Source: Octopus sinensis
Lineage: Eukaryota
Assembly (NCBI RefSeq): GCF_006345805.1
Contig: NC_042999.1
Location: forward strand, 71,920,001 to 71,984,000
DNA length: 64,000 nucleotides
Direction of reading: 5' to 3'
The translations under genes were made by a program, and so were the position numbers. The notes beneath the pieces are model-generated. The model was not told the origin of the DNA, searched no databases, and was given only the letters and a program-made list of their open reading frames with translations. Below, piece after piece: positions 437-59,999 of this stretch; position 1 is the stretch's first letter, and the number at the start of each line of letters is the position of its first letter.

Positions 437-478
437 ATAAACCTGATGAATGCGTAACGCATGAAAGTACTAGTTTAT
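437..478 (+). ncRNA. Minimal type-I hammerhead ribozyme (PLE-type)
   Basis: ATAAAC-CTGATGA-ATGCG-TAA-CGCAT-GAAA-GTAC-TA-GTTTAT: perfect 6-bp stem I, intact core, 5-bp stem II, palindromic stem III (AGTACT), CUA cleavage triplet. Confidence 0.85.
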
Positions 479-927: not shown

Positions 928-1516
928 ATACTGGAAAAGGGATAAGTATTTGCGAAGGGAACCTACTTTTCATCGACAACTGTAATTGTCATACGCTGAT
1001 GACGGGTCAATATCCAGAAACTCGAGTCCGTGTGTATCATAAGTTGAAGACGGGAAGGATGGCTTCCCTTTGCAAATACTGATAGGGCACAGAAAGTGTG
1101 TCTAAAGCCAGCTGGAGGAGGTGTCCTCCTGGGGCTACAAACTACAGTAGCATCCACCATTAGGGGTTAGCCATATTTAAATGGCAAATATACGTCACGA
1201 TGTGTTGCAGCTACTGTTTATAACTAGCTCTAAGATTTATTATTGCTTGATTACACCTTTTCGATATCAGTGTCTTTACAATACTGGAAAAGGGATAAGT
1301 ATTTGCGAAGGGAACCTACTTTTCATCGACAACTGTGATTGTCACATGCCGATGACGGGCAATAATGTAAAAAATAATGGCTTCCCTTTGTAAATACTGA
1401 TAGGGCACTGAAAGGGTGTCTAAAGCCAGCTGGAGGAGGTGTCCTCCTGGGGCTACAAACTACAGTAGCATCCACCATTAGGGGTTAGCCATATTTAAAT
1501 GGCAAATATACGTCAC
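928..1516 (+). repeat. Partial tandem duplication (unit ~353 bp) of an HHR-bearing repeat (PLE pLTR or retrozyme-like)
   Basis: 928-1198 is repeated nearly identically at 1281-1516. The second copy has lost the 3' half of the hammerhead. Confidence 0.85.
990..1034 (+). ncRNA. Minimal type-I hammerhead ribozyme with GUC site
   Basis: CATACG-CTGATGA-CGGGT-CAAT-ATCCA-GAAA-CTCGAG-TC-CGTGTG: 6-bp stem I (one G-U), intact core, palindromic stem III ACTCGAGT, GUC triplet. Confidence 0.85.
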
Positions 1517-19552: not shown

Positions 19553-20430
19553 CTAGGTCTGATCAATAAGTATCCAGACTATTCCCATACTACAAAGCTA
19601 TAGCACGCAGAGTAAAGCCGCTTGGCAAAGATTGACCTTGCACTCTGCTGTGCATGCGCACTAAGTTTTAACGTTGTAGCTCACTTCTGCCGTTCGCAGC
19701 AGGGGTTGGAAGGAACGTGTTTACTGTGTGATCGTCGCATTGAGCGTGGCAGAGACAGGTGTCATGGAGATACCTGCTCAGAGGCCTACGCAAAGTTGCA
19801 GAAAAATTATGGCGAGGAGTGTATGAACCGCACACAAGTGTACGAGTGTTTCAGACGTTTCCAAGATGGCCGAAAATATTCCGATAGTGATGCAGGCAAG
19901 CAGTAGAACTCAGAAAAACATCATATACGTGCATGCAGCTGTGAGGGGAAATTGTTGAATCACCATTTGTGAGTTATCAGATTATATACAGATTAGTTAT
20001 GGTTCAGTCCAGTCCATTATCACTGAAGATTTGGGTATGAGTCGCGTGTCTGTCGAGTTTGTGCCGAAACTGCTTTCAGCTGACTAAAAAGTCACTCAGG
20101 TTTCAGTTGCACAAAATCTCCTTGATTGTGTCCTGAACGATGAAAACATTTTGAAAACTTTGCGTAGGGCTCCGAGTCAGTATCACCAAGCTTTTGGCAA
20201 AATTTGATGCAGATTCCCTGCTCAACTTTCTCTGTCATGGCCATGCGACGATCACAAGCTACACACGTTCATTCCAGGCACCGTTGTAAACAGCGAAAGT
20301 GAGGTAGAACGTTAAAACTTAATGTGCATGTACAGCAAAGTTAAAGGTCAATCTGTGTCAAACGGCTTTACTCTGCGTGATTTAGCCTTGTTACTATAGC
20401 AACAGTCCGAATACTTAATGACCAGATCAG
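19553..20430 (+). mobile_element. Internally deleted mariner-family DNA transposon with ~125-bp TIRs
   Basis: TIRs GGTCTGATCAATAAGTATCCAGACT...TAAGTTTTAACGTT and AACGTTAAAACTTA...AGTCCGAATACTTAATGACCAGA. HTH remnant SEAYAKLQKNYGEECMNRTQVYECFRRFQDGR, then LGMSRVSVEFVPKLLS. Confidence 0.85.
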
Positions 20431-22015: not shown

Positions 22016-22343
22016 ACAACACTAATCATCCGGTGATGGCGTGACACTGTATCTGTACGGTTAACTACTACTCTCACGATACACTAACACATTCAATAAT
22101 TCGGACGCTTAATTCTTATTTTATCGCAAAAGCAAAAGAAAATATTAATAACGATCTGATATGATGTCAGCTGTTTTCAAACTGCACCCCTCCGCAACAC
22201 ACGCTCGCGCGCGCACGCATTCATACTATTGTGCAGCGCTCTGACCACCAAGTAACGCGTTTCCATATAATATAATAGCATAGAGAGAACTGTATTGCTT
22301 ATTCTTTTATTAAATGCTCACACTTTTCTATTTTCTGTTCCAG

Positions 22344-22460
22344 AAACATATGACTGTCCTCCGGGACACCGAAAATGTCGAGGAGGGCAATGTATCGCAG
22401 AAAATAAATGGTGTGACTTTTGGAGAGATTGTCCTGATAATTCAGATGAAGAAGACTGCG
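22344..22460 (+). CDS. Internal coding exon, LDLa module 1 of a GRL101-like LDLa-repeat receptor
   Basis: Polypyrimidine+CAG acceptor, 117 bp, phase 1-1, GTAATT donor. Encodes [38 protein letters not shown] (6 Cys, canonical DCxDxSDE). Confidence 0.93.
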
Positions 22461-22859: not shown

Positions 22860-23245
22860 TCACATACAGATATATGATACTGAGAGTATTATTTCAATAC
22901 TTTGGTGGATGGAGTGAACTATTTGCTCGATGCTCTCCATAGTGTTAGCTTCTAGATCATCAGCATTGTCTTGTAGGGAAGCTTTGGCTAACATGTTGAT
23001 ATCATCCACATAGCGGAAATACATGGTTAAGTTTATGGAGTTTTCTGCTAATTTCTCTTTTCCTCCTGTCCCTCCATACCATAGATAGGTGAGCCACATC
23101 GCCAGCGATACTGACACCGATGGCTGCACCTTCCACTTGGGCGTATATTTTGTTATTAAACTTAAATATATGGTCCTTGCGTGTGCTCTTGGTACTCGCA
23201 CGCACCGCATGTGCGATCATTGTTTTCGGGGGTCTTCTTGGCCAT
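22860..23245 (-). mobile_element. Penelope-like element RT fragment
   Basis: DHIFKFNNKIYAQVEGAAIGVSIAGDVAHLSM and YFRYVDDINML in adjacent frames. Confidence 0.8.
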
Positions 23246-23249
23246 AGAA

Positions 23250-23592
23250 TTTATAAGCCTAGTACTTATTCTATCGGTGTCTTTTGCTGAACCGCTAAGT
23301 TACGAGTACGTAAACACACCAACACCGATTGTCAAGAGGTAAAGGGGAGACAAATACAGACTAAAAGACACACACACATATACATACACACACACACCCG
23401 CATACATATATATATATATATATGCACGTGACAGGCTTTATTCAGTTTCCGTCTACCAAATCCACTCACAAGACTTTGGTCACCAGAGGCTATAGTAGAA
23501 GAAACGCGCCCAGGTTGACATGCAGTGGGGCTGAGCACCGTAAACATATGGTCGTGAAGCAAGTTTCTTACCAGACAGCCACGCTTGCGCCT
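23250..23592 (-). mobile_element. SINE family A
   Basis: TTCAGTTTCCGTCTACCAAATCCACTCACAAG...CTATAGTAGAAGA...CTTACCAGACAGCCAC..GCGCCT. Confidence 0.85.
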
Positions 23593-23611
23593 ATGCACAC
23601 ACACACACACA

Positions 23612-23707
<96 letters not shown>

Positions 23708-28150: not shown

Positions 28151-28409
28151 TTATTCCGTCATGAGCTCTTTATTGCTTTAAAATAAACTGTAAATGGACG
28201 GTTAACTTAATAACGATATATATATGTATATATATATATATATATATAAATACACGGATATGTGACATTATATCCGTGTCGGAGTCACTGAAGAGATAGA
28301 TAATCTAGTAATGCCCAGGAAGCTAATTTTCAAGTTAATAGGAAAAACCCGGAACCATGTGGTTGGGAAGCAAGCTTTTTACCACACGAGCATTCTTGCA
28401 CCTTATATG

Positions 28410-28484
<75 letters not shown>

Positions 28485-28494
28485 TATATATAAG

Positions 28495-28790
28495 TTAATC
28501 CAAACAAGAAAACACAAAAAGAACACAGTAACGCGAGGACGTGGAATAAATAAATTATTATTGGACGCTCAGGAAAGACGGGAAGAAGGGGGGGCTTAAC
28601 GTTTCGAGCGGAGCTCTTCGTCGGAAACATAGGAGAAAGAAAGATCCCGAGAAGGGAAGACAGAGGAAAAAAATCGCTGGGGGTACTCACGAGGTCACAT
28701 ATTGAAAGACCGGAAGTTGAAAGGTGGAAGAATGATATTTTTAAAAGACAGGAGAGTTTCAAAGACAGTATGGTAAGGACAAGGAAATGT
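28495..28790 (-). mobile_element. PLE-type terminal fragment abutting (TA)n, containing a minimal hammerhead
   Basis: Contains the HHR motif at 28595-28627. Its minus-strand 3' end runs directly into (TA)n. Confidence 0.6.
28595..28627 (-). ncRNA. Minimal hammerhead motif (U4C variant)
   Basis: Minus strand TTT-CCGACGA-A-GAGC-TCC-GCTC-GAAA-CGTTAAG. 4-bp stem II, AACGTT palindrome, weak stem I. Confidence 0.55.
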
Positions 28791-29383
28791 GTGTGGATGT
28801 GTGCGTACGCGGAGGTCTGCCGGTGCGCGTGTGTGTGTATGTGTGCAATGATGACACGTGTGTGTGAGGGGGGTGCGTGTGTGTGAGGGGGTGCGTGTGT
28901 GTGTGCATGTGTGTATGGCGAACAACTGGCTAGTAGCTGGCCAGTTTGTAGGAATAAGGAGTGGTGATTTTTGTGTCCAGCACAGGTCGAAAACAAAGAG
29001 GTATGTGTGTGTGCGTGTATATATATGTATCGTGTGTGTGTTTTGTTTGTAGTGTGTGTGTGTATGTGTGTGTTCGTGTGTGTATGCGTAGAGTTTGGGA
29101 ATGTGTCGAGTAACTGTGCTTAACTTAGTGTATGTGTGCGTGTGTGCTTGTACGTGCGTGAGTGTGTATATATATGTATGTATAACTGTGTGCGTGTATG
29201 TATAATTGTGTGCCGTGTGTATGGGATGTATGTGTGGGTTCATTTGTGTGTGTGTTTGTATGTGCGTATTGTTGTGTGTGCGTGTATGTGTGCGTTTGTA
29301 TGTGTGTGTGTACGTATGTGTATGTGTGCGTGCGCGTGTAGGTATATATTGTGTGTATGTATATATATATATTTGTGTGTGTG

Positions 29384-29420
<37 letters not shown>

Positions 29421-29440
29421 ATGTTATGTATATATGATAC

Positions 29441-29671
29441 TGATTAGAAGATCGAAAATCCACCTGAAGATTGTCGGAGCAGACATGAAACATTTGTAGT
29501 GGCGGTTTATTTAATTTATATTAAAATTTTATGTATTGATTAAGTCTTTCCTTGTTTGGTTTTAAAATAGTGGTTTTGTCTCGAATTATATTATATAATA
29601 TTTTACTATAAAATTGGATTTAACCCTAAATCTGATTTTTCCCTGTAATTTTGGATTCATTCCCTAATATT

Positions 29672-29675
<4 letters not shown>
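29441..29675 (+). mobile_element. Short HHR-bearing PLE pLTR-like repeat, copy 1
   Basis: Diverged direct copy of ~29910-30128. Same 3' end TTCCCTAATAT followed by (TA)n. Confidence 0.8.
29460..29502 (+). ncRNA. Minimal type-I hammerhead ribozyme
   Basis: CCAC-CTGAAGA-TTGTC-GGAGCA-GACAT-GAAA-CATTTG-TA-GTGG, GUA triplet. Confidence 0.75.
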
Positions 29676-29720
<45 letters not shown>

Positions 29721-29820
29721 ATATATATAATATTATTAGAGACAAAACCACTATTTTGCAAAACAAACAAGGAAAGACTTAATCAATACATAAAATTTTA
29801 ATAAAAAGTCAAAAAAACCG

Positions 29821-29863
29821 CCACTACAATTGTTTCTTGTCCTGATCGACAATCTTCAGGTGG
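29821..29863 (-). ncRNA. Minimal hammerhead ribozyme (antisense arm of palindrome)
   Basis: Exact mirror of 29913-29955. Confidence 0.85.
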
Positions 29864-29912
29864 ACTTCCAATAAGTCAGTTTCAAATAATTTGAAACTGA
29901 CTTATTGGAAGT

Positions 29913-29955
29913 CCACCTGAAGATTGTCGATCAGGACAAGAAACAATTGTAGTGG
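29913..29955 (+). ncRNA. Minimal type-I hammerhead ribozyme
   Basis: CCAC-CTGAAGA-TTGTC-GATCAG-GACAA-GAAA-CAATTG-TA-GTGG: all three stems paired, palindromic stem III ACAATTGT, GUA triplet. Confidence 0.88.
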
Positions 29956-30119
29956 CGGTTTTTTTGACTTTTTATTAAAATTTTATGTATTGATTAAGTC
30001 TTTCCTTGTTTGTTTTGCAAAATAGTGGTTTTGTCTCTAATAATATTATATAATATTTTACTATAAAATTGGATTTAATCCTAAATCTGATTTTTCCCTG
30101 TAAATTTGGATTTATTCCC

Positions 30120-30211
<92 letters not shown>

Positions 30212-30259
30212 ATATAAAGTATTCATGCGACGATATATTATCCTCATAAGGGAATATTA

Positions 30260-30540
30260 TATTCTCCGTTTTTTGTCTTTACTTCCGTACACATTCGCTA
30301 GCTTTCTTTAAAAGGGGTTCTAATGGTCTTAGCTTAGACTCTTTTGGGGCAACCAGATCGAACACTTTTGAGTGTAACTGCCCGAAACGGTCGTGACTTC
30401 TGGTACTTGACTGACGAAAGAAGGCCACGAACGACCCATCTTTTTTGCCTGTGCTAATTGTTGTTTCTCTTGTCCGCCTTTGTATCGTTTATCTGTCCGA
30501 ATGTTTTATTGTCCTCTCTTGCATTTTTATTCCATTTTTA
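30260..30540 (+). repeat. Interspersed repeat (possibly PLE-terminal); a related copy lies at ~54850-55070 on minus
   Basis: Shared GCTTTCTT..AAGG..TCTAATG.TCTTAGCTTAG and CTTTGTATCGT.TATCTG segments. Both copies abut (TA)n. Confidence 0.6.
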
Positions 30541-30545
30541 TATTC

Positions 30546-30582
<37 letters not shown>

Positions 30583-30654
30583 CGTGTGTGTGTGTGTGTG
30601 CGTGTGTGTGTGTGTCTGTCTGTTTGTCTGTCTGTGTGTGTGTGTGTGTGTGTG

Positions 30655-30875
30655 TAGGGTTAACGAAAAGTCACCTGACAGTAAATCAACGCTATTTAAA
30701 TTCAATATTAAAACAAAAGATTATTTCATAAATAGACAAATGTTGAACAGAAACGGGGATTTTTACTCACAGCATTTTATTAAACATTTATAATTGGAAT
30801 GAATAAATAAAATTTGATATTAAGTATATATGGAATATTTGATTTACTGTCGAGTGCCTTTTGACCACCCCTGTA
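30655..30875. mobile_element. Tc1/mariner-type MITE
   Basis: TAGGGTTAACGAAAAGTCACCTGACAGTAAATC versus reverse complement of the right end TACAGGGGTGGTCAAAAGGCACTCGACAGTAAATC. TA ends. Confidence 0.6.
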
Positions 30876-31158
30876 TATAAGTGTGTATGTGTGTGTGCGA
30901 GCGCGTGTGCGCTTGTGTTACAACACAGAATCCAAGGTTCCACACTTCGAAATAATTAAACATGAACTACTATTGGAACTTACATACCATATACAGAAGA
31001 TTTTTTTAAACACTTTTATACCCCACTTTCCTCGAATAATGGAGCTGCAACTACAATATCTTCATATATTATATAATAATATATTCTCTATCTCCTTTTC
31101 CATAACAATTCCACATTTCGAACTCAAATATTTACCTTTATTTAACCATTTCACATCA

Positions 31159-31206
31159 TCTCTGATGAAAGAATATCCATAATATCCCAGAAAAAAAGCT
31201 GTAAGA
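31159..31206 (+). ncRNA. Degenerate hammerhead motif in a PLE-like 3' tail (~30920-31270)
   Basis: TCT-CTGATGA-AAGAATATCCATAATATCCCA-GAAA-AAAAGCTG-TA-AGA. Core intact, stems II and III eroded. Followed by (TA)n. Confidence 0.5.
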
Positions 31207-31269
31207 CTATATCTATATCTCTTTCCTTATAAATGTCCCGAAAACTCACAGCCTTGGCTTTGTTATCTC

Positions 31270-31354
<85 letters not shown>

Positions 31355-31474
31355 TATAATATATATAGAAACTCGGGGTGAGTACTTGATAATTATAAGC
31401 ACCTGTGTATACCGTTTGGTGGTGTAGGTGGTGGAGTAAATTGATCAAAATAAAAACATGATGCCAAGGATTCA

Positions 31475-31552
31475 GCGGTACATATGTTTCGGGCCTTTAT
31501 TAGACAGATTTATAACAATGCATAATGTATGTCTGTGGCCTTCTTCAGCCGC
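31475..31552 (-). ncRNA. Hammerhead ribozyme with extended stem II (antisense arm)
   Basis: Mirror of 31991-32068. Confidence 0.78.
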
Positions 31553-31990
31553 GCACAACAGCTTCCACAAGGACATGTGTTACATCAAAAATTCTTGGTT
31601 GGGGATGCAAATCCTCTCATTCGCGTACGACATAATGCGGCAACAGCATAGAATTGAAGCGTCCATCTCTTTCTTCTCTCAATGTAGAATGAGGAAATTT
31701 GGATGTTGAAGTAATGTAAGTAAATAAATACATATATAGACGTGAAGATGGAGGGGCGAGAATTCAGGACGAGGGATAAAAAATGTATAAAAAGTGTAAG
31801 TATAGAAAAGTATAAAAATGTAGAGTATAAAGATATAAAGGGATATAAGGAGATTCTACATTGAGAGAAGAAAGAGATGGACGCTTCAATTCTATGCTGT
31901 TGCCGCATTATGTCGTACGCGAATGAGAGGATTTGCATCCCCAACCAAGAATTTTTGATGTAACACATGTCCTTGTGGAAGCTGTTGTGC

Positions 31991-32068
31991 GCGGCTGAAG
32001 AAGGCCACAGACATACATTATGCATTTTTATAAATCTGTCTAATAAAGGCCCGAAACATATGTACCGC
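31991..32068 (+). ncRNA. Hammerhead ribozyme with extended stem II
   Basis: GCGG-CTGAAGA-AGGCC-(41 nt with ACAGA/TCTGT helix)-GGCCC-GAAA-CATATG-TA-CCGC, palindromic stem III ACATATGT, GUA triplet. Confidence 0.78.
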
Positions 32069-32104
32069 TGAATCCTTGGCATCATGTTTTTATTTTGATC
32101 AATA

Positions 32105-32163
<59 letters not shown>

Positions 32164-32167
32164 GTAA

Positions 32168-32623
32168 GGCGTAGGAGTGGCTGTGTGGTAAGTAGCTTGC
32201 TTACCAACAACATGGTCCCGGGTTCAGTCCCACTGCGTGGCACTTGGGCAAGTGTCTTCTACTATAGCCTCGGGCCGACCAAAGCCTTGTGAGTGGATTT
32301 GGTAGACGGAAACTGAAAGAAGTCCGTCGTATATATGTATATGTATATATACATATATATATATACATATGTATATGTATATATATGCATGTGTGTGTGT
32401 GTTTGTGTGTCTGCGTTTGTCCTCCCAACATCGCTTGACAACCGATGCTGATGTGTTTACGTCCCTGTAACTTAGTGGTTTGGCAAAAGAGACCGATAGA
32501 AGAAGTACTAGGCTTCCAAAGAATAAGTCCTGGGGTCGATTTGCTCGACTAAAGGCGGTTCTCCAGCATGGCCAGAGTCAAATGACTGAAACAAGTAAAA
32601 AGAGTAAAAAAAAGAAAAAAGAG
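32168..32623 (+). mobile_element. Full-length tRNA-derived SINE family A (CORE-like) with internal microsatellite
   Basis: A-box-like TGGCTGTGTGG, B-box-like GGTTCAGTCCC, CORE-like CTTGGGCAAGT, internal (TA)/(TG) tract, 3' end ATGACTGAAACAAGTAAAAAGAG. Confidence 0.9.
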
Positions 32624-34107: not shown

Positions 34108-36893
34108 TTTTTTTTTTCTTCTTTCAAATTTGCTTCCATTTCTTGCCGAGTGTCTTCCCGACTCCTAGGGCAAAGAAACTCATAGTATACATTGGTAGGC
34201 CATTAAACCAAACTCAATAGTTCGTTCATTTTTTTTTATTTTTTTAAGTTAAATTAAAATACATGAGCAGCAACAGTTCTCACATCGACAATGCTCTTCT
34301 CAATACGTGTGATGTACCAGTTAAGACAATCTTTTGCACTTCTTGCAGGGATGGTAAGCCAGGGATCATTCTCATATAATTTTCGGTTCCCTTCTTGATC
34401 ATTCCTAGTGCTCCTACGATCACTGGTATTGTAACCGCCTTGTGATGCCACATTTTCTCAATTTCAATGAGTAGGTCTTTATATTTTCTGAGCTTGTCAA
34501 ACTCTTTCGCTGAGATATTATGATCACAGGGGATGCTCATGTCGATCAATAAGCAAACTTTATTGTTTTGGTCTTTCACAACAATATCTGGTTTATTGGC
34601 CTTGATGGTTCGGTCTGTTTGTACTGGAAAGTCCCACAGAATGGTTACATTTTCTCCTTCAGTTACAGCCTCAGGGTGGTGATTATACCACTTGTCGGCA
34701 GTTTTGATATTGTAATGCCGACTTATTAGCCAGTGTAGATATTGGCCAACTCTGTCATGTCTTAATTTATACTCCACTGGTGCTAAGACTTCACATCCAG
34801 AGATTAGGTGGTCCACTGTTTCAATCATGTCTTTGCAGAATCGGCATTTTGGGTCTGCTCCATTTTTCATCACATTGGCCTGGTAGTTCCGGGTTAATAG
34901 GCTTTGATCTTGAGCAGCCAGGATGAAACCTTCGCTCTCTGCTTTTAGCCCTGAGCTCCGTAGCCACTGATGGGTTTGCTTCTGGTCAACATCAGCTTGT
35001 TTGCTGCGGGTCACATATTTGCCGTGCAGAGGTTTCTCCTCCCACCTATCAGCCAATTGCTCGTGCGCTTTCTTCATTGCCATCATTGTTCAACATAGTT
35101 CAACACATTGTAGCTATAAGTAACAACTGGAACTGCTAAGGAATTTATAGCTAACACCTTGTTACGTGCATTTAGTTCAGATTTCAGGACTGCACGAACT
35201 CTCCTATAACATTCCTTCCTGATTTTCTCTTTCATGCGTGCATGCTGAATACCAGAGCCTTCATTTATCCCTAAATATTTGTATGTTTGTTCTTGCACAA
35301 GCTCTCTTATGACTGTGTCAACATCTAACACGACTGAATTTGTGGTCTTCACTTTCCCTTTCTGGAAAGTGGCCTTGGCACACTTCTCAAGTCCAAACTC
35401 CATCCCGATGTCATCGCTGAATGCTTTCACGGTGCGCAATAGGCCTTCAAGTTCATTATTGTCTTTACCATAAAGTTTTAAGTCATCCATATAAAATAGA
35501 TGGCTTATTTTTTTATTGGCAATTTTATACCCATACCCTGTTCTGTTTAATTCACTTGTAAGGGGTATTAGGACTATGCAGAATATTAAAGGTGAAAGTG
35601 AGTCACCTTGAAAAATTCCACAGTTGATGTTTATATTTTCTGAGGCAAGTACTCCATTAGAGTGGTATAATTGGAGATTCGTATTCCACAACGACATATT
35701 GTGCTTCAGGAAGTTTGAAATCACAGGGGAAATTTTGAAGATGTCCAGCGATCTCAAGATCCATGGATGCGGTATACTGTCGAAGGCCTTTTTGTAGTCA
35801 ATCCATGCGGTGCTGAGATTTCTGCGCTTGTGACAGTTCTCAAGGATCATACGATTGATTAGCAGTTGATCTTTGCATCCGTAAGAGCCTCGGCGGCACC
35901 CTTTTTGTTCAATGGGGAAAGTATCGTTCTTCTCCATGAATGCATATGTTTTCTCCGCCTGGATAGATGTTAGGATTTTATACGTGGTGGATAGACAGGT
36001 TATAGGCCGATAGTTTTTTGGAAGGTTGGTTTCGTTATTCTTTGGGAGTAGGTAAGTAATGCCACTTGCTAACCATTCAGGTGTTTTCTTTGGGTCTCTC
36101 ATAATTCCATTGAGCAGCTGAACTAGCTTACCGTGTGCGCATGGGAGCGATGCGAGCCAGAAGTTCGGCACCCTATCTTTACTGGGGGATTTCCAATTAT
36201 GGGCCTTCGTGAGTGTCTTTCTTAGGTCTGCTATTGTGATGTCTTCCCACGCTTGTTGTAAATTTTGGTAGGATCCTTCAGTTTGTATAATCCAGTCTGC
36301 ATTTATGTTGTACGTCTTCTTGTCACTCCAAATCCTTTTCCAAAAGTTTTGAACTTCTTCCATGGGAGGGGGATCTTTAACGGTTACTTTCTCCTTCCTT
36401 ATTTCTCTGTAGAATTTTTTGCCATTAGATGTGAACAGCTTATTTTGCTTGTAAAACTTGTTTCTCTTCTCAAATCTTCGTATTCTTTGGGCTTTTGCTT
36501 GGACTTTTTGTTTCAGCGTTTCTTTTATTGATATCAGTTCTTCTCTTGGTGAGGATCCAAATTTTCTCTTCATCTTTCTTCCTGTTCTGGATCTTACATC
36601 ATTTCCACATATTAGTTCATTTAATATTGATATTTCCCCTCTCATAAATTCAATCTCTTTTTCAATTTTACTTCTCCAGGTTTGATTTCTTCCCAGGTTT
36701 TGTTTTCTTTGTTTTTTCGGGGGCATACAGCTGGTTTCAATTGCCCTAGCAGAAGCGTAAATAATTTCATTTAACTCAGTAAAATCAGGTTTTAATTCTC
36801 GTATTATTTCATTTGTTACATAGTTGCCAATTTGGATTTGTTTTTTATTTTGGTTTGTATTTGAGAGTTTATGAAGTGGTTCTCTATCATTCA
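34108..36893 (-). mobile_element. R4/Dong-clade non-LTR retrotransposon (RT + CCHC + RLE), 5'-truncated with internal deletion, in (TAA)n
   Basis: ORF 35083-36894: NYRPITCL, WIDYKKAFDS, GIFQGDSLSP, LFYMDDLK. ORF 34280-35086: CRFC..ETVDHLISGC, RHD, KPDIV..LIDMSIP. (TAA)n on both sides. Confidence 0.95.
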
Positions 36894-36907
36894 TATTATT
36901 ATTATTA

Positions 36908-36964
<57 letters not shown>

Positions 36965-36981
36965 CATTATTATTATTGGTA

Positions 36982-38246
36982 TCTTTTTTTCTTCTTCTTT
37001 CAAATTTGCTTCCATTTCTTGCCGAGTGTTTTCCCGACTCCTAGAGCAAAGAAAACAAAGAAACTCATAGTATACATTGGTAGTTTAGTTTGTTTTTTTA
37101 AAGTTAAATTAAAATACATGGGTAGTAACAGTTTTCACATCGACAATGCTTTTCTCAATACGTGTGATGTACCAGTTAAGACAATCTTTTGCACTTCTTG
37201 CATGGATGGTAAACCCCCTGGTTTACCATCCCTGCAAGAAGTGCAAAATTCTCATATAATTTTCGGTTCCCTTCTTGATCATTCCTAGTGCTCCTACGAT
37301 CACTGGTATTGTAACCGCCTTGAGATGCCACATTTTCTCAATTTCAATGTGCAGGTCTTTATATTTTCTGAGCTTGTCAAACTCTTTCGCCGAGATATTA
37401 TGATCACAGGGGATGCTCATGTCGATCAATTAGCAAACTTTATTGTTTTGGTCTTTCACAACGATATCCGATTTATTGGCTTTGATGGTTCGGTCTGTAT
37501 GTACTGGAAAGTCCCACAGAATCGTTACATTTTCTTCTTCAGTTACAACTTCAGGGTGGTGATTATACAATTTGTCGGCAGTTTTGATATTGTAATGCCG
37601 ACTTATTAGCCAGTGTAGATATTGGCCAACTCTGTCATGTATTAATTTATACTCCACTGGTGCTAAGACTTTACATCCAGAGATTAGGTGGTCCACTGTT
37701 TCAATCATGTCGTTGTAGAATCGGCATTTTGGGTCTGCTCCATTTTTCATCACATTGGTCTGTTATTTCTGAGGAATCCCTCCTCACATTTGCCAATTTG
37801 TTCTCGTCCAAATAGGGCCTACTGTCTTGATTCCGTGTTCTCCATATACTGTAAGAGTTTGCGGTGTGTCTCTCTTGAGATGGTCTACCTAATGCATAGT
37901 AATAAGCGTATATTACTTCTTTATACTCTTCTCGGGTCCATTTGTTCCGCTTACATTTTTCTTTCTGTGGTGGTTTTGGTGGTGAAGTTGGAGGGCTCGA
38001 GTTGGGGAATTTCCCGTTCAAGTGACCATCCATGTCCGTATTCGGAGAAGAATTTATGCCAGTTGATGACTTTTCGATCCCAGGCTGGCTCTTCCCTGGG
38101 GGACGCGCTTCCAGATTAACCATAGGACAAGCGATTTGGTATACTGATTTAGTTTTCCTTTTAGTTTCCAAAAACATTTTGGTGCTACGATAATGTTATC
38201 ATTTTTGAGCTTTGATTGGTTCGTGGGGAGACGGCCATCATTGCCG
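36982..38246 (-). mobile_element. Second R4/Dong copy of the same family: N-terminus fused to the RLE, RT deleted
   Basis: 36982-37760 closely matches 34108-34880. ORF 37701-38177 has the N-terminal KRNKWTREEYKEVIYAYYY...LANVRR region. Confidence 0.9.
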
Positions 38247-38702: not shown

Positions 38703-39958
38703 GAGTGACAGAGCAGTGCATGCCATCAGAGTGACACTGGGGTAAAATATACGAAGCCCAATATACCCATCATGACCACCCGTCTGATAAGGGTACACCA
38801 GGCACATGCATCACAACCATATGTGCGCGACATGGTGATCTCATATCAAGATAAACAGCACATGACCTTGCAGGTGGGGCCCAGTTAGAATTTTCTTCAG
38901 GTTGAGTAGCCCATCCCGCTCAAAAGGTCCCTGAATAAGGGTTATTTAAGGATGTTGGAAGAACCACCCATGTTTCCAGAGGTGAATTATTCAAACCCCA
39001 AAGAATCCCTCTCAACACATGGCTATGATGCTCCCCCACTACTTCTGCTCGTGATCAGAGATGCACATATCGTTAGCCAAGACGTCGCACATTATACAAT
39101 ATCCTGAGGTTTTTGATTTAAGATATTGTATCTACCAGGGGTTTGTACTGTTTATCAAGTCACACACAACAAGGACCTCAGACAGATAATACTTTACGCA
39201 ATATGCTTGCAGTTCCAAGTAATGCTGACTTTTGCAAAACATCTAGATTGTTGTGTATCTGTAAGGTTTTCAGATGTTTTTTCACATTGGGTGATATTGA
39301 GCTCAATACTCCGATGACAATAGGGATATAACCGTTATGTTCGACTCTCGTAGCTGCCACATCTTAGCGATCTCAATTCTCAGGTCTCCATATTTATCAA
39401 CTTTTTCTCTTTCTTTCATGATATGTTGATTTCCTGGTACTGCTACGTCGACTATTAGGCACTCTTGTTTTCTCCCACCTAAAGGATACCGTATCCGGCC
39501 CCTCGGTGCTCCAACACTTTGTCTGGAAATCAAAGTCCCAGAGGATTTTTGCCTTCCCCTTTTTGTCCATTATCTTTTCCGGTGAATGTTGGTACCAGGC
39601 ACCCATAATCTCATATCCATACTTACGGCATAGTAACCAGTGGAGGTTTTGGGCTACTTTGTCTTGTCTACACTTGTACTCTTTCTGCGCAAGACTTTCA
39701 CAAGCACTAAAAACGTGAGTTACACTTTCTACCCCCTTCCCTCATATTCTGCAGCGGTCCGATGCACTTGTATGGTATATATTCATTTTCAGTGAGTTGG
39801 TATTTAATGCCTGGTCATGGGCCACTATAGTTAGGTTTTCAGTATTCTCTTTTATGTCACCCTCCTTGAGTGGCCTCCAAAAGACTGCTCCCTGGTCTTT
39901 TAATTTGTTGGTTTCACGGTGGACCTGACCATGTAATTCCATACGTTGGCTGTTCTTG
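38702..39958 (-). mobile_element. Third, divergent R4/Dong-like element (RLE end plus probable 3' UTR) ending in (TAA)n
   Basis: LHGQ, AHDQALNT, ILWDFDFQT, IVDVAVPG, KVDKYGDLRIEIAKMW, LQKSALLGTASILRKVL. Assignment of 38702-39125 as 3' UTR is inferred. Confidence 0.8.
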
Positions 39959-39959
39959 T

Positions 39960-40017
<58 letters not shown>

Positions 40018-40566
40018 CACATGTGTGTGTGTACATGGGAATTGAAATTTTATCATTTGGCCTGAACGGAAAGTAGTGCTATGACACTTTGGAAGAAATG
40101 CTTCATTCATGATGAAAATGGACCAGGTTATCTTCAAATACCCAGGAGACATGACCACAGTATGCAACACTAAATCAAATTCTAAATATAAATTTGTAAC
40201 AGCTCGTCGGATTCACGTCTTCCTCAGAGGCGATAGTTATTGTTGGTGACACAAGTCCATGGAGACTGGAAAACTAAAGCAATGGTTGCGCATTGTCATC
40301 GATGCAGTCAATGTAATAGCGATTCTTGATGCTGAGCAATAAGATCTGGTCGAAACGCATTCTAATGTTAAAATCGCTAAGCAGCAGCAGCAGCTTTTTC
40401 TAAATAACTCGTAGTTTCTAGAATTGTCTTTGAGTGCTGGTTATAGAATTCGCCCTATGCGTTTCGTGCAGAGAACTGGGTTGAGGTACAGAAACTAAAA
40501 GAGTTGATATGATGTTTATAATTCGAAGAGAGAACATCCGCACTCCCTCGCACTCCTTACATCTCC

Positions 40567-43124: not shown

Positions 43125-44690
43125 GGTGAGAAAGTTGGTGTGTGAAAGCACGTGGTTGAATATATAGAAAATAGTAAAAGGTGAAAAAACTACAGAAGGC
43201 TTGTTTTAAAAGGTTAAAAAATATATTTGAGTCATTATGTCAGAAGAATGTTATAAAACTTTTTTCATAGTGACATAGTTTTTGAAGAAATAACCGGTTT
43301 CGTGTTAACTTTTAAATTTCTCAAAACATCGTGTTATGTCTTCGTTATGAAGTGTAAAGTAGAGTTCCAGGTAAGGGGAGGTAATAAGTGATTTATTCCG
43401 GTGTAAGGGAGATAATCGCTTTATATTTCTTGCCCCTTTTATTTAAAGGGGTGAGTTTCTCTGTATAAGAATGTTAGAGTGGTTAAGTTTGGGCTTATAT
43501 TTTTCAATGAAGAATGTTTCCTTGTTTAGTCTAATTTGTGTTGGTGTTCCAATAGCACATTGATAAAATGGAAAGATTAAAAATTGTGGTCGTTGTTGCT
43601 TTGCGCATTTCTCAATATACTCACTAAAGGGTATCATTCTGTATTCTGGGAATGCAATCTATTGTCGATGCAGTGTGCATCTATGTCTGAGTGATAGTCC
43701 CGTGGACCCCCTCTCTCAATACATAAGAGAGAATTGGAAAAGATTCCTGGACGATTGTTTTATACTCTGGAATGAAAACACAGATAAACTCCTAAAATTC
43801 AAAATCCTATTGAACAGCATCAACCCAAATATACAGTTCACAATGGAATACAACCAAAAGGAGTTTCCATTCTTAGATATACTAATTTAAAAAATTAACC
43901 TTAAAATAGAAACAGAAATTTTTTACAAAGCCACCGACGCCAAACAATACCTACTTTTTGATTCATCTTCAGTAGTGAAACTGGTTGATGCTTCTGCTAG
44001 TCTCAATTTTCTGCAAAATTCTGTCAAAATCCTCTCAAAAGGGCTCAAATTTACGCCAACTCCACGCAGAGCCAACTTAAATGAAATCAAGGATAATATA
44101 ACAGAATTTTGCAGAAAATTAAGACTAGCAGAAGCATCAACCAGTTTCAATACTGAAGATGAATCACTAGTCAAGAACAAAAGTGAACACATCCCCCACA
44201 GAGGAAGAACTAAAGATATTGACGAATTCTGCAGCCACATTGAGAACTTTCCCTACCATACTATACATAAACAGACAGTTAACTCAAATTTTAACACTTC
44301 ACAATGGAAGGAACTGATAGAACTTCAAAATGATGAAGATATAACCATTAAGGAAGCAGACAAGGGAAGTGCAGTTGTAATAATGGATACATCATACTAT
44401 AGAAATCTTGTAATTTCCTTGCTTGATGACAATCAACATTATGAAAAAATCACCAACTACACCCCGCAAAAAATAATGAAAACTCTATCTTCACTAATTA
44501 AAACCCATGAAAAGGAACTAATAACCACAGAGATTGACTTTCTAACAAACTTTAAATGCAAGCCTAGCCTCATCTATGGTCTGCCAAAATTCATAAAAGC
44601 CAAATTATAAATGAAACCATTAAAAACCACCAAAGACATACATACACACACCTAACCCGGGGGACCTAAAACTATATAAATTAAAACTCT
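43125..44690. mobile_element. Scrambled Penelope-like element: inverted GIY-YIG/3' end (-), RT core (+), inverted linker, N-terminal part (+)
   Basis: Minus 43443-43700: IFPFYQC..RLNKETFFIEKYKPKLN. Plus 43700-43960: WKRFLDDCF, FPFLDI, YKATDAKQYL. Plus 44025-44610: LSKGLKFTPTP, KEADKGSAVV, YGLPK. Confidence 0.88.
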
Positions 44691-44891
44691 CCTACACCTT
44701 TTTATTTATATGTTTGTGCCATTGCTAAGTAAAAAATTGTTTGGTATGAGAATAAATATTTTTCAAAATTTAAAAACGACTGCACGATTTAGATTCAGGT
44801 ACACTTTCAAATCCCAAAACAAACTCTCCCATAGTTTTGTCTGCGAGGGAATACACTTCTTTCTACACACACACACGCGCGCGCAGGCACA

Positions 44892-44945
<54 letters not shown>

Positions 44946-45312
44946 CACACACACACATAAATATATATTACATAGAGACATAAATCAAGAAATGGAGCCA
45001 AACGCAGGTGTTATTCAAGTCTTTATACATGTGATATATGTTTCTAAGAAAACATTGATATTATTCCGGAGGAAATAAAATGAGGTTAAACAATGCAATC
45101 ATCTCGCCAGAGAAAAAGAGAGAAACAAAACACTTCAATAAGCCATTTTAACCGAATGCGGTTACCGCGTATGTGATAAAGTGTATAGTATTTATACACA
45201 GAGAGGTGACCCTTTACAGGATGCCTTACATGCTAGAGAGGACAGACAAACCTAAAACACAAAGAAAATGTATTCCAAATAGAATGAAACCAAGAATTAT
45301 TTATAGTTAATT

Positions 45313-45376
45313 CCAAACTCGAGTATCTGTATTAATGAACAAATAAATTAATTAGTCATTTGTACTTCATCAGTGG
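45313..45376 (-). ncRNA. Degenerate hammerhead motif (GAAA changed to GATA)
   Basis: Minus: CCA-CTGATGA-AGTAC...TACA-GATA-CTCGAG-TT-TGG, palindromic ACTCGAGT. Confidence 0.45.
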
Positions 45377-45469
45377 GATCGCCTAAGATAATTCTTAGCT
45401 ATGGAGCAAATACGTACCTAAATACCACGTGTGCTGCATGCATATATATATGCATGCAAGTTATTTTTT

Positions 45470-46390
45470 AAAAAATCGATCGTTAATAGAGTTAACGTCA
45501 AAGGCAATTTGGAGAAAGAGAAATTTATTAGCTCTTTCAGTAATCACTTAAAGGCTATTACAAGTAATTTAGTAAGAAATATTTCACTTAGACTTTCTAT
45601 ATTATCTACTAATATTGATATCTTCAAAGATAAAGCCGAATTTTATAATTCTGCCTTGCTTAAAGCAGGCTATAAAGAAAAAATTACCTATATTAACCCT
45701 ATTGACATTAAGGGTGGTAAACAGTACTTATGACCCTTTATATGTAATAAAAATAAGTCTAGAACTTTTAAAGATAATCATCCTAATAAAAAGGTGTCCT
45801 AGTAAAACCGTTTGGTTGATAATTCCATATGGTAAGCAGCTCAAATCCAACCTCCCTTACTAGTTTCGTGAAGCTATAGATAAAAATTTCCCAAATAAAT
45901 TCAAGATACCATTCCATAATCAATCACACCAAATTAGAATAGGGTTTTCAAGGACCAAAATCCTTTCACAAATCATCTCCTTGCATAGCAATAAGTTGTT
46001 GATTACAAATCCACTTAATGAAAATAATAAGATTGATATTATTAACGCTAACCATTCTTTGAACAATAATAACAACAATATTAATATTTCTGATATAAAT
46101 TCGAATCGTATTCGTTTCTTTAGCAGTAATTCTGAGACTAGAAACTCTGTTTATCAATGTAAAATTTCTTCCGGTTCTGTTGTCTTTATTTACATAGGTA
46201 GTTCATCGTTTCAGTTGTCAAAAAGAATATCTAACCATTACTCTACATTTAGACATATCAATAAACGTAATAATACTGGGCTTCATAAATTAATTTGGTA
46301 TCAAAAGGAACATAACAAACAATTTGATTTGGAATGAAATATTCTATCTAGATCCTTCTCCTATAATAACGGTAAATCTTTCTGTCCGCT
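45470..46390 (+). mobile_element. PLE relic of a second clade (RT thumb + GIY-YIG)
   Basis: ISLRLSILSTNIDIF...YNSALLKAGY and SVYQCKI...IYIGSS..LSKRISNHYSTF...TGLHKLIW. Confidence 0.8.
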
Positions 46391-46789
46391 AGCCCTAACC
46401 CTAACCTCTCTTACACCCAAAAATAAATCTCCAGGCTAACCTAAAGTTTCGGGAACCAATACCCACCAATCTACCCACATCATCTCAATCAATGGAAGAA
46501 CTTGCCTCCGAGACTTAAACCTCAACACGAATACTTCAAGCATTCAACGAGACACCACATAACTTCTCCCTCCACCCACATTACTATATCAAAAATAAAT
46601 TTAACCCACATCAACCATAGACAATATAAGAACCCTCAGTACAACCATAATCTAGTCCGCTACACTGTCACTCCACCACAAACATACTACCACAGACACA
46701 TTACACCCATTTTCGCTTCAGTAAACCAAGCACAATACAGACTTTCGACAACCACCCACGTACTACAAGCACTTTTAGACCTAAATTAG

Positions 46790-49400
46790 AGAAACAGAGA
46801 TGTAAAATGGAACAAAATGTACAAAAACAACCGAAAATAAGTATTACACAGACTAAAAGAGATTTAAAATTTACACCAACCTTTCGCAGATCGAACCCGA
46901 ATGAAATTAAGGATAACACTATGGATTTCTGCTGAAAATTACGCCTCACAGAAGCACTTCACAACTACATCAGCGAAGATGACTCAATAGTAAAAAACAA
47001 AAGCGAATACTTTCGTACAAAAGGCAGAAATAACGCACTTGATGCTTTTTGTGAACACATTACCAATTTTCCTTTTAATACTCTACGAAACAACGAATTA
47101 AATCCAATCTTAACACAAATGAATGGAAACACATAATCGAGTTAAAGCATGATATAAACCTGATCATTAAAGAAGCCGACAAAGGAAGTGTGGTATTAGT
47201 GATGGACACAGAGTACTACAAAAAATTAATACTCTCCATGCTGGAAAACAATATTTACTAAGATAGTACAATACAACCCACAGAAGTCACTTAAAAACTT
47301 AAATCCTCCTTACTTCAAATACATGGAAAGGGCCTCACTAAAAAAGAAATTGACTATTTATCCAATTTTCAATACAGACCAAGTCTATTCTTGGGATTAC
47401 CTAAAATACACAAAAATCTACATATTTGTAAATCTTGCAAAGTTTCGCCAAGGCAATGCATTAATGTTCCTCCGCTGCTGACCTGAAACTTAGACCCATC
47501 ATTGCTGGCCCTGCTTGTGAAACCCACCGTTTGAGCAACTTCCTCGACATCTTACTCAAACCTTTTCTAAAATATGTGAAAAGATTCATCAGGGATGACT
47601 TAGACATGCTTAACCACCTCCCGAAGACAATAAATGAAGAAAGCCTGTTTGTATCATTCGATGTGGTGAACCTGTACACCAATATCCCACACGATTATGG
47701 TATAGAAGCAATCACCTTCTGGTTAGAAAAATACCTAGAAGAGATTCCAGGAGGTATCAACTACAGCTTCATAATTGCAGCTATCCTACAGAACAACTAT
47801 TTCATGTTCGATATAGTTTACTATCGACAAAAATATGGAATTGCAATGGGAACTCGAGCTGCACCAGTGATTGGGAATCTTGTAATGGGTTACCTAGAAC
47901 TTACAATATACCAATCATCACCACAAAAATATGGTACCTCATTTCATTGCTATTTAAAGGAGAGCTGGAAGTGGTATTTGGACGATTGCTTTATACTTTA
48001 GACCGATAGCATGGTCAAACGCCTCGATTTCAAAATAATGCTCAACAATATCAATAGGAACATACAACTCACCTTGGAGCACAGCAATAAACAACTCCCT
48101 TTTCTTGACATTATAATTATAATAGTCAATAACCACGTCGAAACAGACATCTTCTATAAACACACAGATTCAAAACAATACCTATTATTTAACTCATGCC
48201 ACCCCAAACACATAAAACTTAATATACCATATAATCTAGCGAAAAGAATCTGTGCCATAGTTTCGGACACCTATACTCGTGAACGAAGACTCCTTGAACT
48301 CAGAACAATACTAATCAAAAGACATTACCCAATATCATTAATAAATGATTGCATTAAACGAGCAAAGGAAATAGACATACGAACATTAAGGAAAGTCAAC
48401 CGAAATACTACAACAGACATCTCCCATACATCTCCACACATAACCCTAGAAACAATGAAGTCTTTAACATTATCATCCAAAATGTACCCATCCTCACAGG
48501 TGATAAAACAATGAACAAAAGTTTACGCTCACACAAAATTATCAAAAGCGAAATGCAACCAAAATCATTTTTAAAATATTAACCAACGCAAGACTATATC
48601 CATTAAAAACGGAACCAAAAGTAAAACAAAATGTGGTCGACCTAACTGTGGCATATGCCCCTATCTTTTGTAGGGTTCAGCGTTCCACTTTAAGGTAAAA
48701 TATTTAAGATTAAATCAAATTTCACCTATGTCTCGGAAAACCTAATCTATGTCATTACCTGCTTAGGGTGTGGTAATCAGTATATTGGCCAAACAGGAAT
48801 ATCATTCCGTCGAAGAACCACCCTCCGCACAGAACAAATCTGCCACTTCCAATACAAACAGATACAGGTCAGTGAGAACATATAAAGGTGTGCTAGGAAC
48901 TTTAATCCTAATTTCCTAAATTTCCCCTTCTATCAATGTTCACAGAACTGCTACGTACAGCAAAGAATGAATAAAGAGACAACTTTCTTCAATAAATATC
49001 TCCCACAACTCAATTTGAACACATAACATAACACAGGATAATACCAACCCTTCAATTAATACCACTAACTCCCATACATCCAATACGCAATTTACATTAC
49101 AGTATTATATCTACCCTAATTGCACCAAATCCAGACCTACTTACATCCCTTACACATAATCGTTTTACTCAGGGACTAGTAAACCCGACACCGTTCGGTA
49201 ATCGGTGCGCATTCAAAGTCAGTGAATACTAATTTTACGAAACCGGTATGTTTTTGAATCTCTTTAACAATTCACAATAATGACTTATATTACTTTTATT
49301 CCTACCCCAGTTCATCTAATTTTATATATCTATTGTTACTTTTCATAAAAAAAACCTTACTGTTTTTGATTTCCAATGTGCATTTTCGCTCTTTTCTTCT
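46790..49400 (+). mobile_element. Near full-length degenerate Penelope-like element (Neptune-like: RT, Cys linker, GIY-YIG)
   Basis: LKFTPT, KEADKG, GLPKIHK, LRPII, SFDVVNLYTNIP, GIAMGT, WYLDD, PFLD, SCHP, CGRPNCGICP, NLIYVITCLGCGNQYIGQTG, FPFYQC. Frameshifted. Ends at a (TA)n tract. Confidence 0.92.
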
Positions 49401-50433: not shown

Positions 50434-50621
50434 CTTTCCTCCACAAATTCTATGCTATAATTAGCAGTATTTGATTTACGCCGTCCATTATTTTGATCTG
50501 GTCCTACTGCCTGAGTCAATAATCGATTTACTATTATTACTTTACGAAGAAGACAAACATGTGCCTTGAACCGATTGTATATATTTCGTTTTTCATTTTT
50601 TTTAATTAAACTTCCTTTCAG

Positions 50622-50753
50622 AGCTGAGGCCATGTAAACGAGACGAATTTAAATGTGACAACGGTCAATGCATTCCTGGTTATTTACGATGTTTTAAAGG
50701 GCCAAACACTGACAGACTTGGATGTGCCGATTATTCTCATTTAAAACAATGCC
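50622..50753 (+). CDS. Internal coding exon, atypical LDLa module 2 (not in the ORF track)
   Basis: CTTCCTTTCAG acceptor, 132 bp, phase 1-1, GTAAGT donor. Encodes LRPCKRDEFKCDNGQCIPGYLRCFKGPNTDRLGCADYSHLKQC. Confidence 0.92.
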
Positions 50754-59879: not shown

Positions 59880-59999
59880 AAAACACAAAGTGTGAGTCGG
59901 ATCAGTTTAAATGTCGCAATGCTTACTGTATTACACAAAAACAAGTGTGCAACGGGAAAACGGATTGTCTTATGTCAAAATGGGACGAATTTCATTGTG
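59880..59999 (+). CDS. Internal coding exon, LDLa module 3
   Basis: TTTTTCTTTTTGTAG acceptor, 120 bp, phase 1-1, GTAAGT donor. Encodes NTKCESDQFKCRNAYCITQKQVCNGKTDCLMSKWDEFHC. Confidence 0.93.

Follow-up and report, generated by a model that had tools for sequence, protein, structure and literature searches.

Hammerhead-bearing insertions in an Octopus sinensis intron are ends of Penelope-like elements, some of them probably copied from spliced RNA

Within a 64,000-nucleotide (nt) stretch of the Octopus sinensis genome (contig NC_042999.1, positions 71,920,001 to 71,984,000; hereafter the window, whose own numbering is used below), a host intron contains a 3.6-kb island of hammerhead ribozyme motifs lying between tracts of (TA)n. 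We consider it probable that this island is made of five short insertions from four families of Penelope-like elements (PLEs), designated A to D, each insertion beside (TA)n, and that those of family B were reverse-transcribed from spliced sense RNA. An initial annotation of the window had found the motifs but not the splice junctions, nor the fact that the copies have fixed 5′ ends.

Long copies of family B carry a splice donor, either GTAAGT or a GTATGT four bases further on, 1.1–1.8 kb before the ribozyme, and an acceptor, TTTTAG, 48 nt before the ribozyme cut; in 11 arms the donor–acceptor pairs enclose 1.1–1.8 kb. Short B copies, both arms of the window insertion of subfamily B2 included, join this donor and acceptor exactly. 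Retention of the intron in transposed copies is a reported property of PLEs, though not one that defines a clade, and exact matches across the genome show it in 1,185 B arms with the intron-bearing acceptor versus 1,559 arms with the exon junction. The window insertion of subfamily B1 (29435–29670) uses a third donor, at which 27 of 30 sampled matches are joined and three continue with GT, the acceptor following about 1.28 kb on. Both B insertions of the window are spliced, and all three donor positions join the homologous acceptor. Separately, at one fetched locus (fetched loci bear L numbers; L297:680–800), both arms of a B1 insertion run upstream into the same foreign sequence and not into exon 1. 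Families C and A showed no intron in the equivalent region.

An antisense template would not be spliceable at these sites, which argues that the spliced B copies derive from sense RNA. Antisense templates have been favoured elsewhere to explain intron retention, in a paper that leaves the question open (PMC3846280; here and below, statements on cited work refer to the parts of each source available to us). In a tree of exon 2 sequences, the spliced label requires 17 changes, at least seven of which are forced by well-supported branches, in an alignment of 85 rows and only 134 columns in which many forks are open; four exon 2 haplotypes occur in both states. Because spliced and unspliced copies are interleaved in this tree, a single ancestral deletion is excluded.

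Many insertions consist of two arms placed head to head. Among such pairs on contig 1 with both arms reaching the junction, 29 were spliced in both arms, 24 were unspliced in both, four used the minor donor in both and none was mixed, so that splice state agreed in 57 of 57 pairs and the minor donor was common to both arms in four of four. The lack of any pair of mixed splice state argues that a single RNA or cDNA gave rise to both arms. Usually one arm terminates at one family 3′ end and the other arm at a second, about 70 nt away; in tandem copies these two ends immediately precede the open reading frame (ORF). They match the two internal start sites of reverse transcriptase (RT) described for a PLE in vitro (PMC11167929).

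The 5′ ends of the copies are also constrained. Among the first 30 distinct spliced B arms on contig 1, none extends beyond the A of a TCACTTC sequence 23 nt before the donor; eight end on that A and the rest stop 2–15 nt short of it. A set of best hits gave the same limit, with 43 of 48 arms stopping at or before this A, one going a base beyond it, and the remaining four all from one locus, L024. In family A, 13 of 30 copies end 103–112 nt before the cut, at TCATTC or TCTTTC, and in family C the ends of six of 30 arms fall no more than 13 nt from the A of TCATTC, three of them on that A, where the plus-strand arm in the window also ends. The initiator consensus is YYANWYY, which the TCACTTC and TCATTC sites fit, and the fixed 5′ ends probably mark transcription starts.

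All four families are common, and each is the terminal repeat of a coding PLE. Exact matches to short patterns number 7,305 and 2,917 for family B, 10,642 for A, 718 for C and 165 for D, for which a first look gave 1,825 candidates. A PLE origin of the cassettes, as first proposed, was borne out, each family being linked to an element with RT and a GIY-YIG endonuclease elsewhere in the genome. An open RT/GIY-YIG frame of 842 amino acids (aa) lies between two C cassettes (98% identity) in L157, and such open frames occur in L156–L158; family A flanks a broken RT-endonuclease region in L132, family B does so in L199 and L200, and family D cassettes are continuous with an endonuclease about 1.1 kb upstream in L098, L101, L103 and L119. 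A single ORF with RT and C-terminal GIY-YIG is thus open in C and broken, with both domains, in A and B, and in D we found the endonuclease part only. L157, L132 and L200 have a cassette on both sides of the ORF, and many copies have inverted arms and two 3′ ends, as in known PLEs. Pfam gave no match for the PLE frames of A–D, and their assignment rests on motifs and mutual similarity.

Judged by motifs alone against the clade definitions of PMC8557442, families B, C and D seem to be Hydra-type and family A Neptune-type, with the proviso that Nematis has the same linker as Neptune. Family C shows RIRWA, DKT and CNCRCASEC, family B shows RIKWK, DKT and CTCRDKSNC, and family D shows CNCHPESIC only; family A, in L132, has DKG and a CX2-5CxxC linker with two inner cysteines before GIY-YIG. 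A Neptune assignment for all four families was dropped against the Hydra-clade definition of the same paper.

Other PLEs are also present. The relics at 43–49 kb of the window had been put forward as the source of mobilising proteins for the cassettes, a role that we reject: blastn finds nothing in them that matches the coding parts of A–D, and protein matches are only short, at 29–60%. They comprise broken PLE RT and endonuclease pieces (43567–48511) from at least two families other than A–D. Another relic in the same intron (22884–23121, minus strand) resembles at 75% an open RT/GIY-YIG frame (914 aa; L131:4783–7524) that belongs to a fifth family and, in L131, sits tail to tail with a family C copy. 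L160–L166 hold related PLE families with open frames of 845–1011 aa, whose RT is about 55% like that of family C.

Two other accounts of the short copies have to be set against copying from spliced RNA. That the intron-less form arose by DNA deletion, or that the stack and its hairpins are assembly artefacts, strikes us as very improbable: the arms are indeed 99–100% identical, but the breakpoints fall exactly at GT and AG, at three donors and in several subfamilies, the hairpins occur at many loci with different centres and with arms ending at two family 3′ ends, and the four families differ in age. The initial annotation had viewed the cassettes as a separate ribozyme element, which does not hold, since all four families are terminal repeats of coding PLEs and the tree intermingles spliced B copies with intron-bearing ones. 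On that view, the short copies would be self-propagating non-autonomous ribozyme elements, akin to retrozymes or short interspersed nuclear elements (SINEs), with intron-less masters and PLE proteins supplied in trans. Short copies do outnumber long ones in B and A, and one exon 2 haplotype was found in 12 spliced and no unspliced arms, in a sample enriched for the best hits to the window; non-autonomous PLE derivatives have also been published (PMC8557442; bioRxiv 10.64898/2026.07.22.740005). We nevertheless consider this account unlikely, as spliced and unspliced arms are interleaved within each subfamily and have haplotypes in common, three donor positions are in use, and the copies begin upstream of the ribozyme and are single or head-to-head, not ribozyme-bounded head-to-tail arrays.

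A further class of 5′ ends lies near the predicted ribozyme cut. A B pattern lying 66 nt past the cut was used to collect insertions; its first 100 matches represent 66 of them, which we scored by their longer arm: two end 36–70 nt past the cut, 22 end 0–35 nt past it, two end inside the 44-nt ribozyme region, 19 end in the start-site zone and 21 extend further up. Four of these 21 long rows are self-reference artefacts (L175, L310 and L311 belong to the start-site class and L301 ends inside the ribozyme), and among the 22 rows of the cut class, three make up a single tandem triplicate and at least one (L303) is a long copy's short arm. The pile held in an alignment-free recheck, in which 42 of 101 arms lacked the core and the stem I strand upstream. 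Scaled counts of primary ends at positions −1, 0, +1, +2, +3 and +4 were 15, 22, 6, 12, 3 and 17, with ambiguity at +2, where the target TA continues the template, and with secondary arms or continuing copies making up, by eye, about half of the +4 rows; position −2, outside the scaled single-base set, gave 18 matches. Two hairpins are centred on the cut, in a B insertion (L473/L494) and in a C insertion (L327). An apparent pile in family C, 22 nt past the cut (10 of 30), proved to be an alignment artefact of an indel in a T run, nine of the ten copies continuing upstream. At four loci (L291, L308, L314 and L316), cut-class junctions carry short reiterated copies of the bases just past the cut, some 40–60 nt before the B 3′ pattern, which look as if RT had re-copied the template end.

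Our direct observations are of family membership, coding partners, TA adjacency, splice junctions, 5′-end distributions and arm concordance; internal RT starts and AT-rich nicking are taken from the literature, and from these we infer a scheme of priming in the leader or the 3′ repeat. The element would be transcribed from an initiator in its own terminal repeat (pLTR), and its RNA would hold twice, in the 5′ leader and at the 3′ end, a block of start, intron where present, hammerhead and two RT start sites. The endonuclease would nick (TA)n and RT would start internally on the RNA, at either of the two start sites. Priming at the leader copy would run off at the cap and leave a 150–330 nt cassette with no ORF, spliced in B, while priming at the 3′ copy, where the intron would seldom be removed, would leave long intron-bearing copies, and RNA already cut by its hammerhead would give the shortest class, ending at or just short of the cut. 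One RNA or cDNA would yield both arms of a head-to-head insertion, and TA kept on both sides of each insertion would let the target persist and copies stack. Three RNA templates (capped spliced leader, ribozyme-cut leader and unspliced 3′ repeat) would then account for the copies: short solo pLTR cassettes would be mass-produced from the leader, introns would be kept in long copies only through unspliced 3′-repeat priming, no antisense template would be needed, the hammerhead would cut in vivo and set about one third of B 5′ ends, and both arms would stem from one RNA. We offer this combined proposal tentatively and rate its chance as just under even.

Several observations weigh against the proposal, and some of them favour another origin for the cut class. 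Locus L024 has long spliced arms, the putative initiator is called from the general consensus and the pile-up of ends, and family D shows no clear 5′-end pile-up. In several C insertions, the one in the window among them, one arm ends at the start site and the other runs beyond it, and a single start-bounded template fails to explain these insertions because one arm passes the start site. The single-base peak at the cut is modest, most cut-class ends fail to reach the cut by 7–25 nt and fall within or beyond a T run, and the class is rare in C (one or two of 30) and A (at most three of 30) and present in B1, whose stem II begins with U-U. In a folding test of five motifs, none folded better than shuffled sequence. 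For Poseidon PAc, a PLE of the green anole studied in vitro, the hammerhead cut could be dispensed with and the template was mainly uncut RNA (PMC11167929). Pausing or slipping of RT at the U run or at local structure, with the hammerheads as passengers, is a serious contender, to which we give a substantial chance, if one short of even. It would fit the many ends in or after the T run 7–13 nt past the cut and the occurrence of the class in B1, and it gains from the reports that hammerhead mutants of that other PLE were without effect on insertion in vitro and that no RNA-seq ends were found at its cut (PMC11167929). The hammerhead fold, however, is weak and so a poor block to RT, at least 15 primary ends genome-wide fall on the exact cut versus six at +1 and two or three at +3, and the L473/L494 and L327 hairpins are centred on the cut. 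On balance, hammerhead cleavage is the somewhat more probable cause of the cut-class ends.

The preference for (TA)n suggested by the initial annotation is pronounced, with 80–100% of sampled copies beside such a tract compared with 15–21% of random places. Within 140–150 nt past the 3′ pattern, a run of (TA)4 or longer was present in 99 of 100 B arms, 30 of 30 C copies, 29 of 30 A copies and 24 of 30 D copies. Young copies do stack in TA tracts beside older ones: the young C insertion of the window, which has relatives at 100%, lies in the TA tract behind an old D copy (81%), as expected if the target outlasts each insertion. The idea of a landing pad thus holds, though as a consequence of a known preference, since (TA)n targeting has already been published for Hydra and Neptune PLEs and is not new here (PMC8557442). 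That paper reports (TA)n insertion for nearly every Hydra family, and the hypothesis that a linker finger lies behind the (TA)n bias in Neptune. A second family was present within 1.5 kb at seven of 96 sampled loci, and with co-occurrence this modest, five insertions in 3.6 kb would be a tail event. In itself the island is unremarkable: PLE ends stacked on an already published target.

The features of the island and its surroundings, by window position, are as follows.

22343–22459, plus strand: host exon of a GRL101 G-protein-coupled receptor, LDLa repeat (aa 378–416 of protein P0001), with AG and GT borders
28404–28492: (TA)n tract at the family A 3′ end
28495–29345, minus strand: family A, 5′-truncated 3′ end of a putative Neptune-type PLE; core at 28624, start-site homologue at about 28706
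29356–29435: (TA)n tract
29435–29670, plus strand: family B, subfamily B1, spliced copy; core at 29464, predicted cut after 29498, U-U at the base of stem II
29435–29450, plus strand: B1 exon 1 remnant, joined to exon 2 at 29451
29667–29733: (TA)n tract
29724–29887, minus strand: family B2, inverted arm, spliced; core at 29859, ending at the nearer family 3′ end
29889–30125, plus strand: family B2, sense arm, spliced; junction 29903/29904, core at 29917, predicted cut after 29951, ending at the farther family 3′ end
30122–30216: (TA)n tract
30921–31270, plus strand: family D, old 5′-truncated 3′ end of a putative Hydra-type PLE, best relatives 81%; decayed hammerhead with core at 31162
31270–31367: (TA)n tract separating the old D copy from the young C insertion
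31368–31852, minus strand: family C, long arm with a tail; core at 31548, extending about 160 nt beyond the initiator-like site (31690)
31853–32106, plus strand: family C, short arm, beginning on the A of TCATTC; core at 31995, predicted cut after 32064, A-C at the base of stem II
32102–32163: (TA)n tract
50621–50752, plus strand: next host exon (aa 417–460 of P0001), closing the 28-kb intron

All seven hammerhead motifs described earlier were recovered at their places in 28495–32103, as were the four families, the (TA)n tracts and the location in an intron. The motifs are real, but they represent five insertion events (A, B1, B2, D and C), because two motif pairs are the arms of single head-to-head insertions: 29821/29913, with 164 nt at 100% identity, and 31475/31991, with 254 nt at 99% identity. 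The description of each as a short cassette ending at (TA)n was right as to (TA)n, but not for the family A copy, which is about 850 nt long and reaches about 29345. A relaxed scan for type I hammerheads in 28495–32103 returned six motifs (those with cores at 28624, 29464, 29859, 29917, 31548 and 31995) compared with a mean of 0.01 and a maximum of one in 300 block-wise dinucleotide shuffles, and a strict scan returned two, compared with 0.003. The predicted cuts after 29498, 29951 and 32064 agree with those given earlier. The seventh motif (core 31162, family D) fails the scan, its stem III having decayed relative to 18 family motifs among the matches listed, and other D members carry a good core. 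Rfam gave no match in the window at its gathering score. Relative to a minimal type I hammerhead (CUGANGA, GAAA and NUH with stems I–III and a palindromic stem III), B2 conforms fully, B1, C and A each deviate once and the window D copy does not conform. The family A core reads CCGACGA in 25 of 28 copies among the matches listed, with a bulged A and a predicted GUU cut. Two further type I motifs in the window (437–478 and 990–1034, plus strand) come from other repeat families, and the region of the second is 74–92% like several fetched loci.

The intron belongs to a GRL101 receptor gene: a GRL101 database protein of O. sinensis matches the plus-strand exons 22343–22459, 50621–50752 and 59882–59998, the first two of which flank the island. 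Four motifs are sense to the host, and the initial annotation had raised the possibility that they cleave the intron and that B1 and B2, whose palindromic stem III halves are near-compatible, form a double hammerhead in cis. We find such action on the host highly improbable. Once the inverted arms are included, the sense cores of B2 and C are predicted to be paired with probability 1.0, B1 stem I reaches a predicted probability of only 0.005 and the D motif is decayed, all of which speak against intron cleavage; the locked B2 core and the unfavoured B1 fold likewise speak against the double hammerhead. In addition, the database protein joins the flanking exons normally, and the window copies are a few among many thousands. 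The ribozymes are predicted to be inert in the host pre-mRNA, and the long double-stranded arms would more plausibly serve as editing substrates. Contigs of runs X5 and X12, guessed to be RNA, show A>G differences at 29996, 30022 and 30024 that are nearly absent from X17 and could be hairpin editing or strain differences. In single contigs from each of runs X1 and X12, also guessed to be RNA, foreign sequence is joined at the family B acceptor position (29903–29904), which gives a weak hint of a host exon possibly spliced onto the element.

The rest of the window is rich in other repeats. Parts of L083 and L066 resemble a repeat at 30262–30649 at 71%. The short repeat at 32164–32610 and 23250–23700, which is probably SINE-like, is very common: it borders (TA)n as well and turns up in many of the fetched loci. 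A non-long terminal repeat (non-LTR) retrotransposon at 34280–36909 (minus strand) has a 608-aa frame with RVT_1 followed by a 269-aa frame, and more fragments lie at 37430–38195 and near 39400–40200. A frame at 19616–19906 (plus strand) is a candidate transposase start, presumably of mariner type.

Families B, C and D resemble published Hydra-clade PLEs in their C-terminal GIY-YIG, CxCx5C linker, canonical pLTR hammerhead and (TA)n insertion, in their partial tandems, inverted 5′-truncated arm and tail and, for B and C, in RWK-like and DKT motifs (PMC8557442). They differ in having 3′ regions of 2–4.5 kb with two 3′ ends about 70 nt apart and in that more than half of the junction-bearing B arms have lost the pLTR intron, where the available parts of that paper describe intron retention alone. 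Compared with Neptune-clade PLEs, most family A copies have C for U4 in the hammerhead, and in many the boundary is a single start site lying about 112 nt before the cut. In Penelope of Drosophila virilis, a start in the pLTR is followed by an intron 46 nt on (23–29 nt here) and most transcripts are spliced, yet genomic copies keep the 75-bp intron (PMC2377424), whereas here the intron spans 1.1–1.8 kb and most genomic copies are spliced. Poseidon PAc is similar in its two internal RT sites matching genomic ends, its AT-rich target and the extension of both strands (PMC11167929); unlike in that system, about one third of octopus B insertions begin at or just past the cut. Non-LTR retrozymes are likewise short and ORF-less, with a type I hammerhead and a relation to pLTRs (PMC7229834; Li et al. 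2026 bioRxiv), but they form head-to-tail arrays with circular RNA. The window copies are single or head-to-head with TA between them, as are most sampled B copies, and are start- or cut-bounded. We found no report of spliced, start-bounded or cut-bounded PLE copies in the literature searched, which left subscription papers and supplements outside (the supplement of PMC8557442 may list these families).

Whether the template of PLEs is sense or antisense, why introns are kept, what the hammerhead does and how head-to-head insertions form are questions open in the literature (PMC3846280; PMC8557442). The spliced junction, the hard 5′ limit and the concordant arms in thousands of copies provide in vivo evidence on the sense of the template and on head-to-head formation, and the same copies give a testable lead on the role of the hammerhead, for which the open 842-aa family C frames make an assay feasible. 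Our results also suggest that repeat catalogues list some leader by-products of PLE replication as ribozyme cassettes or as unclassified short repeats.

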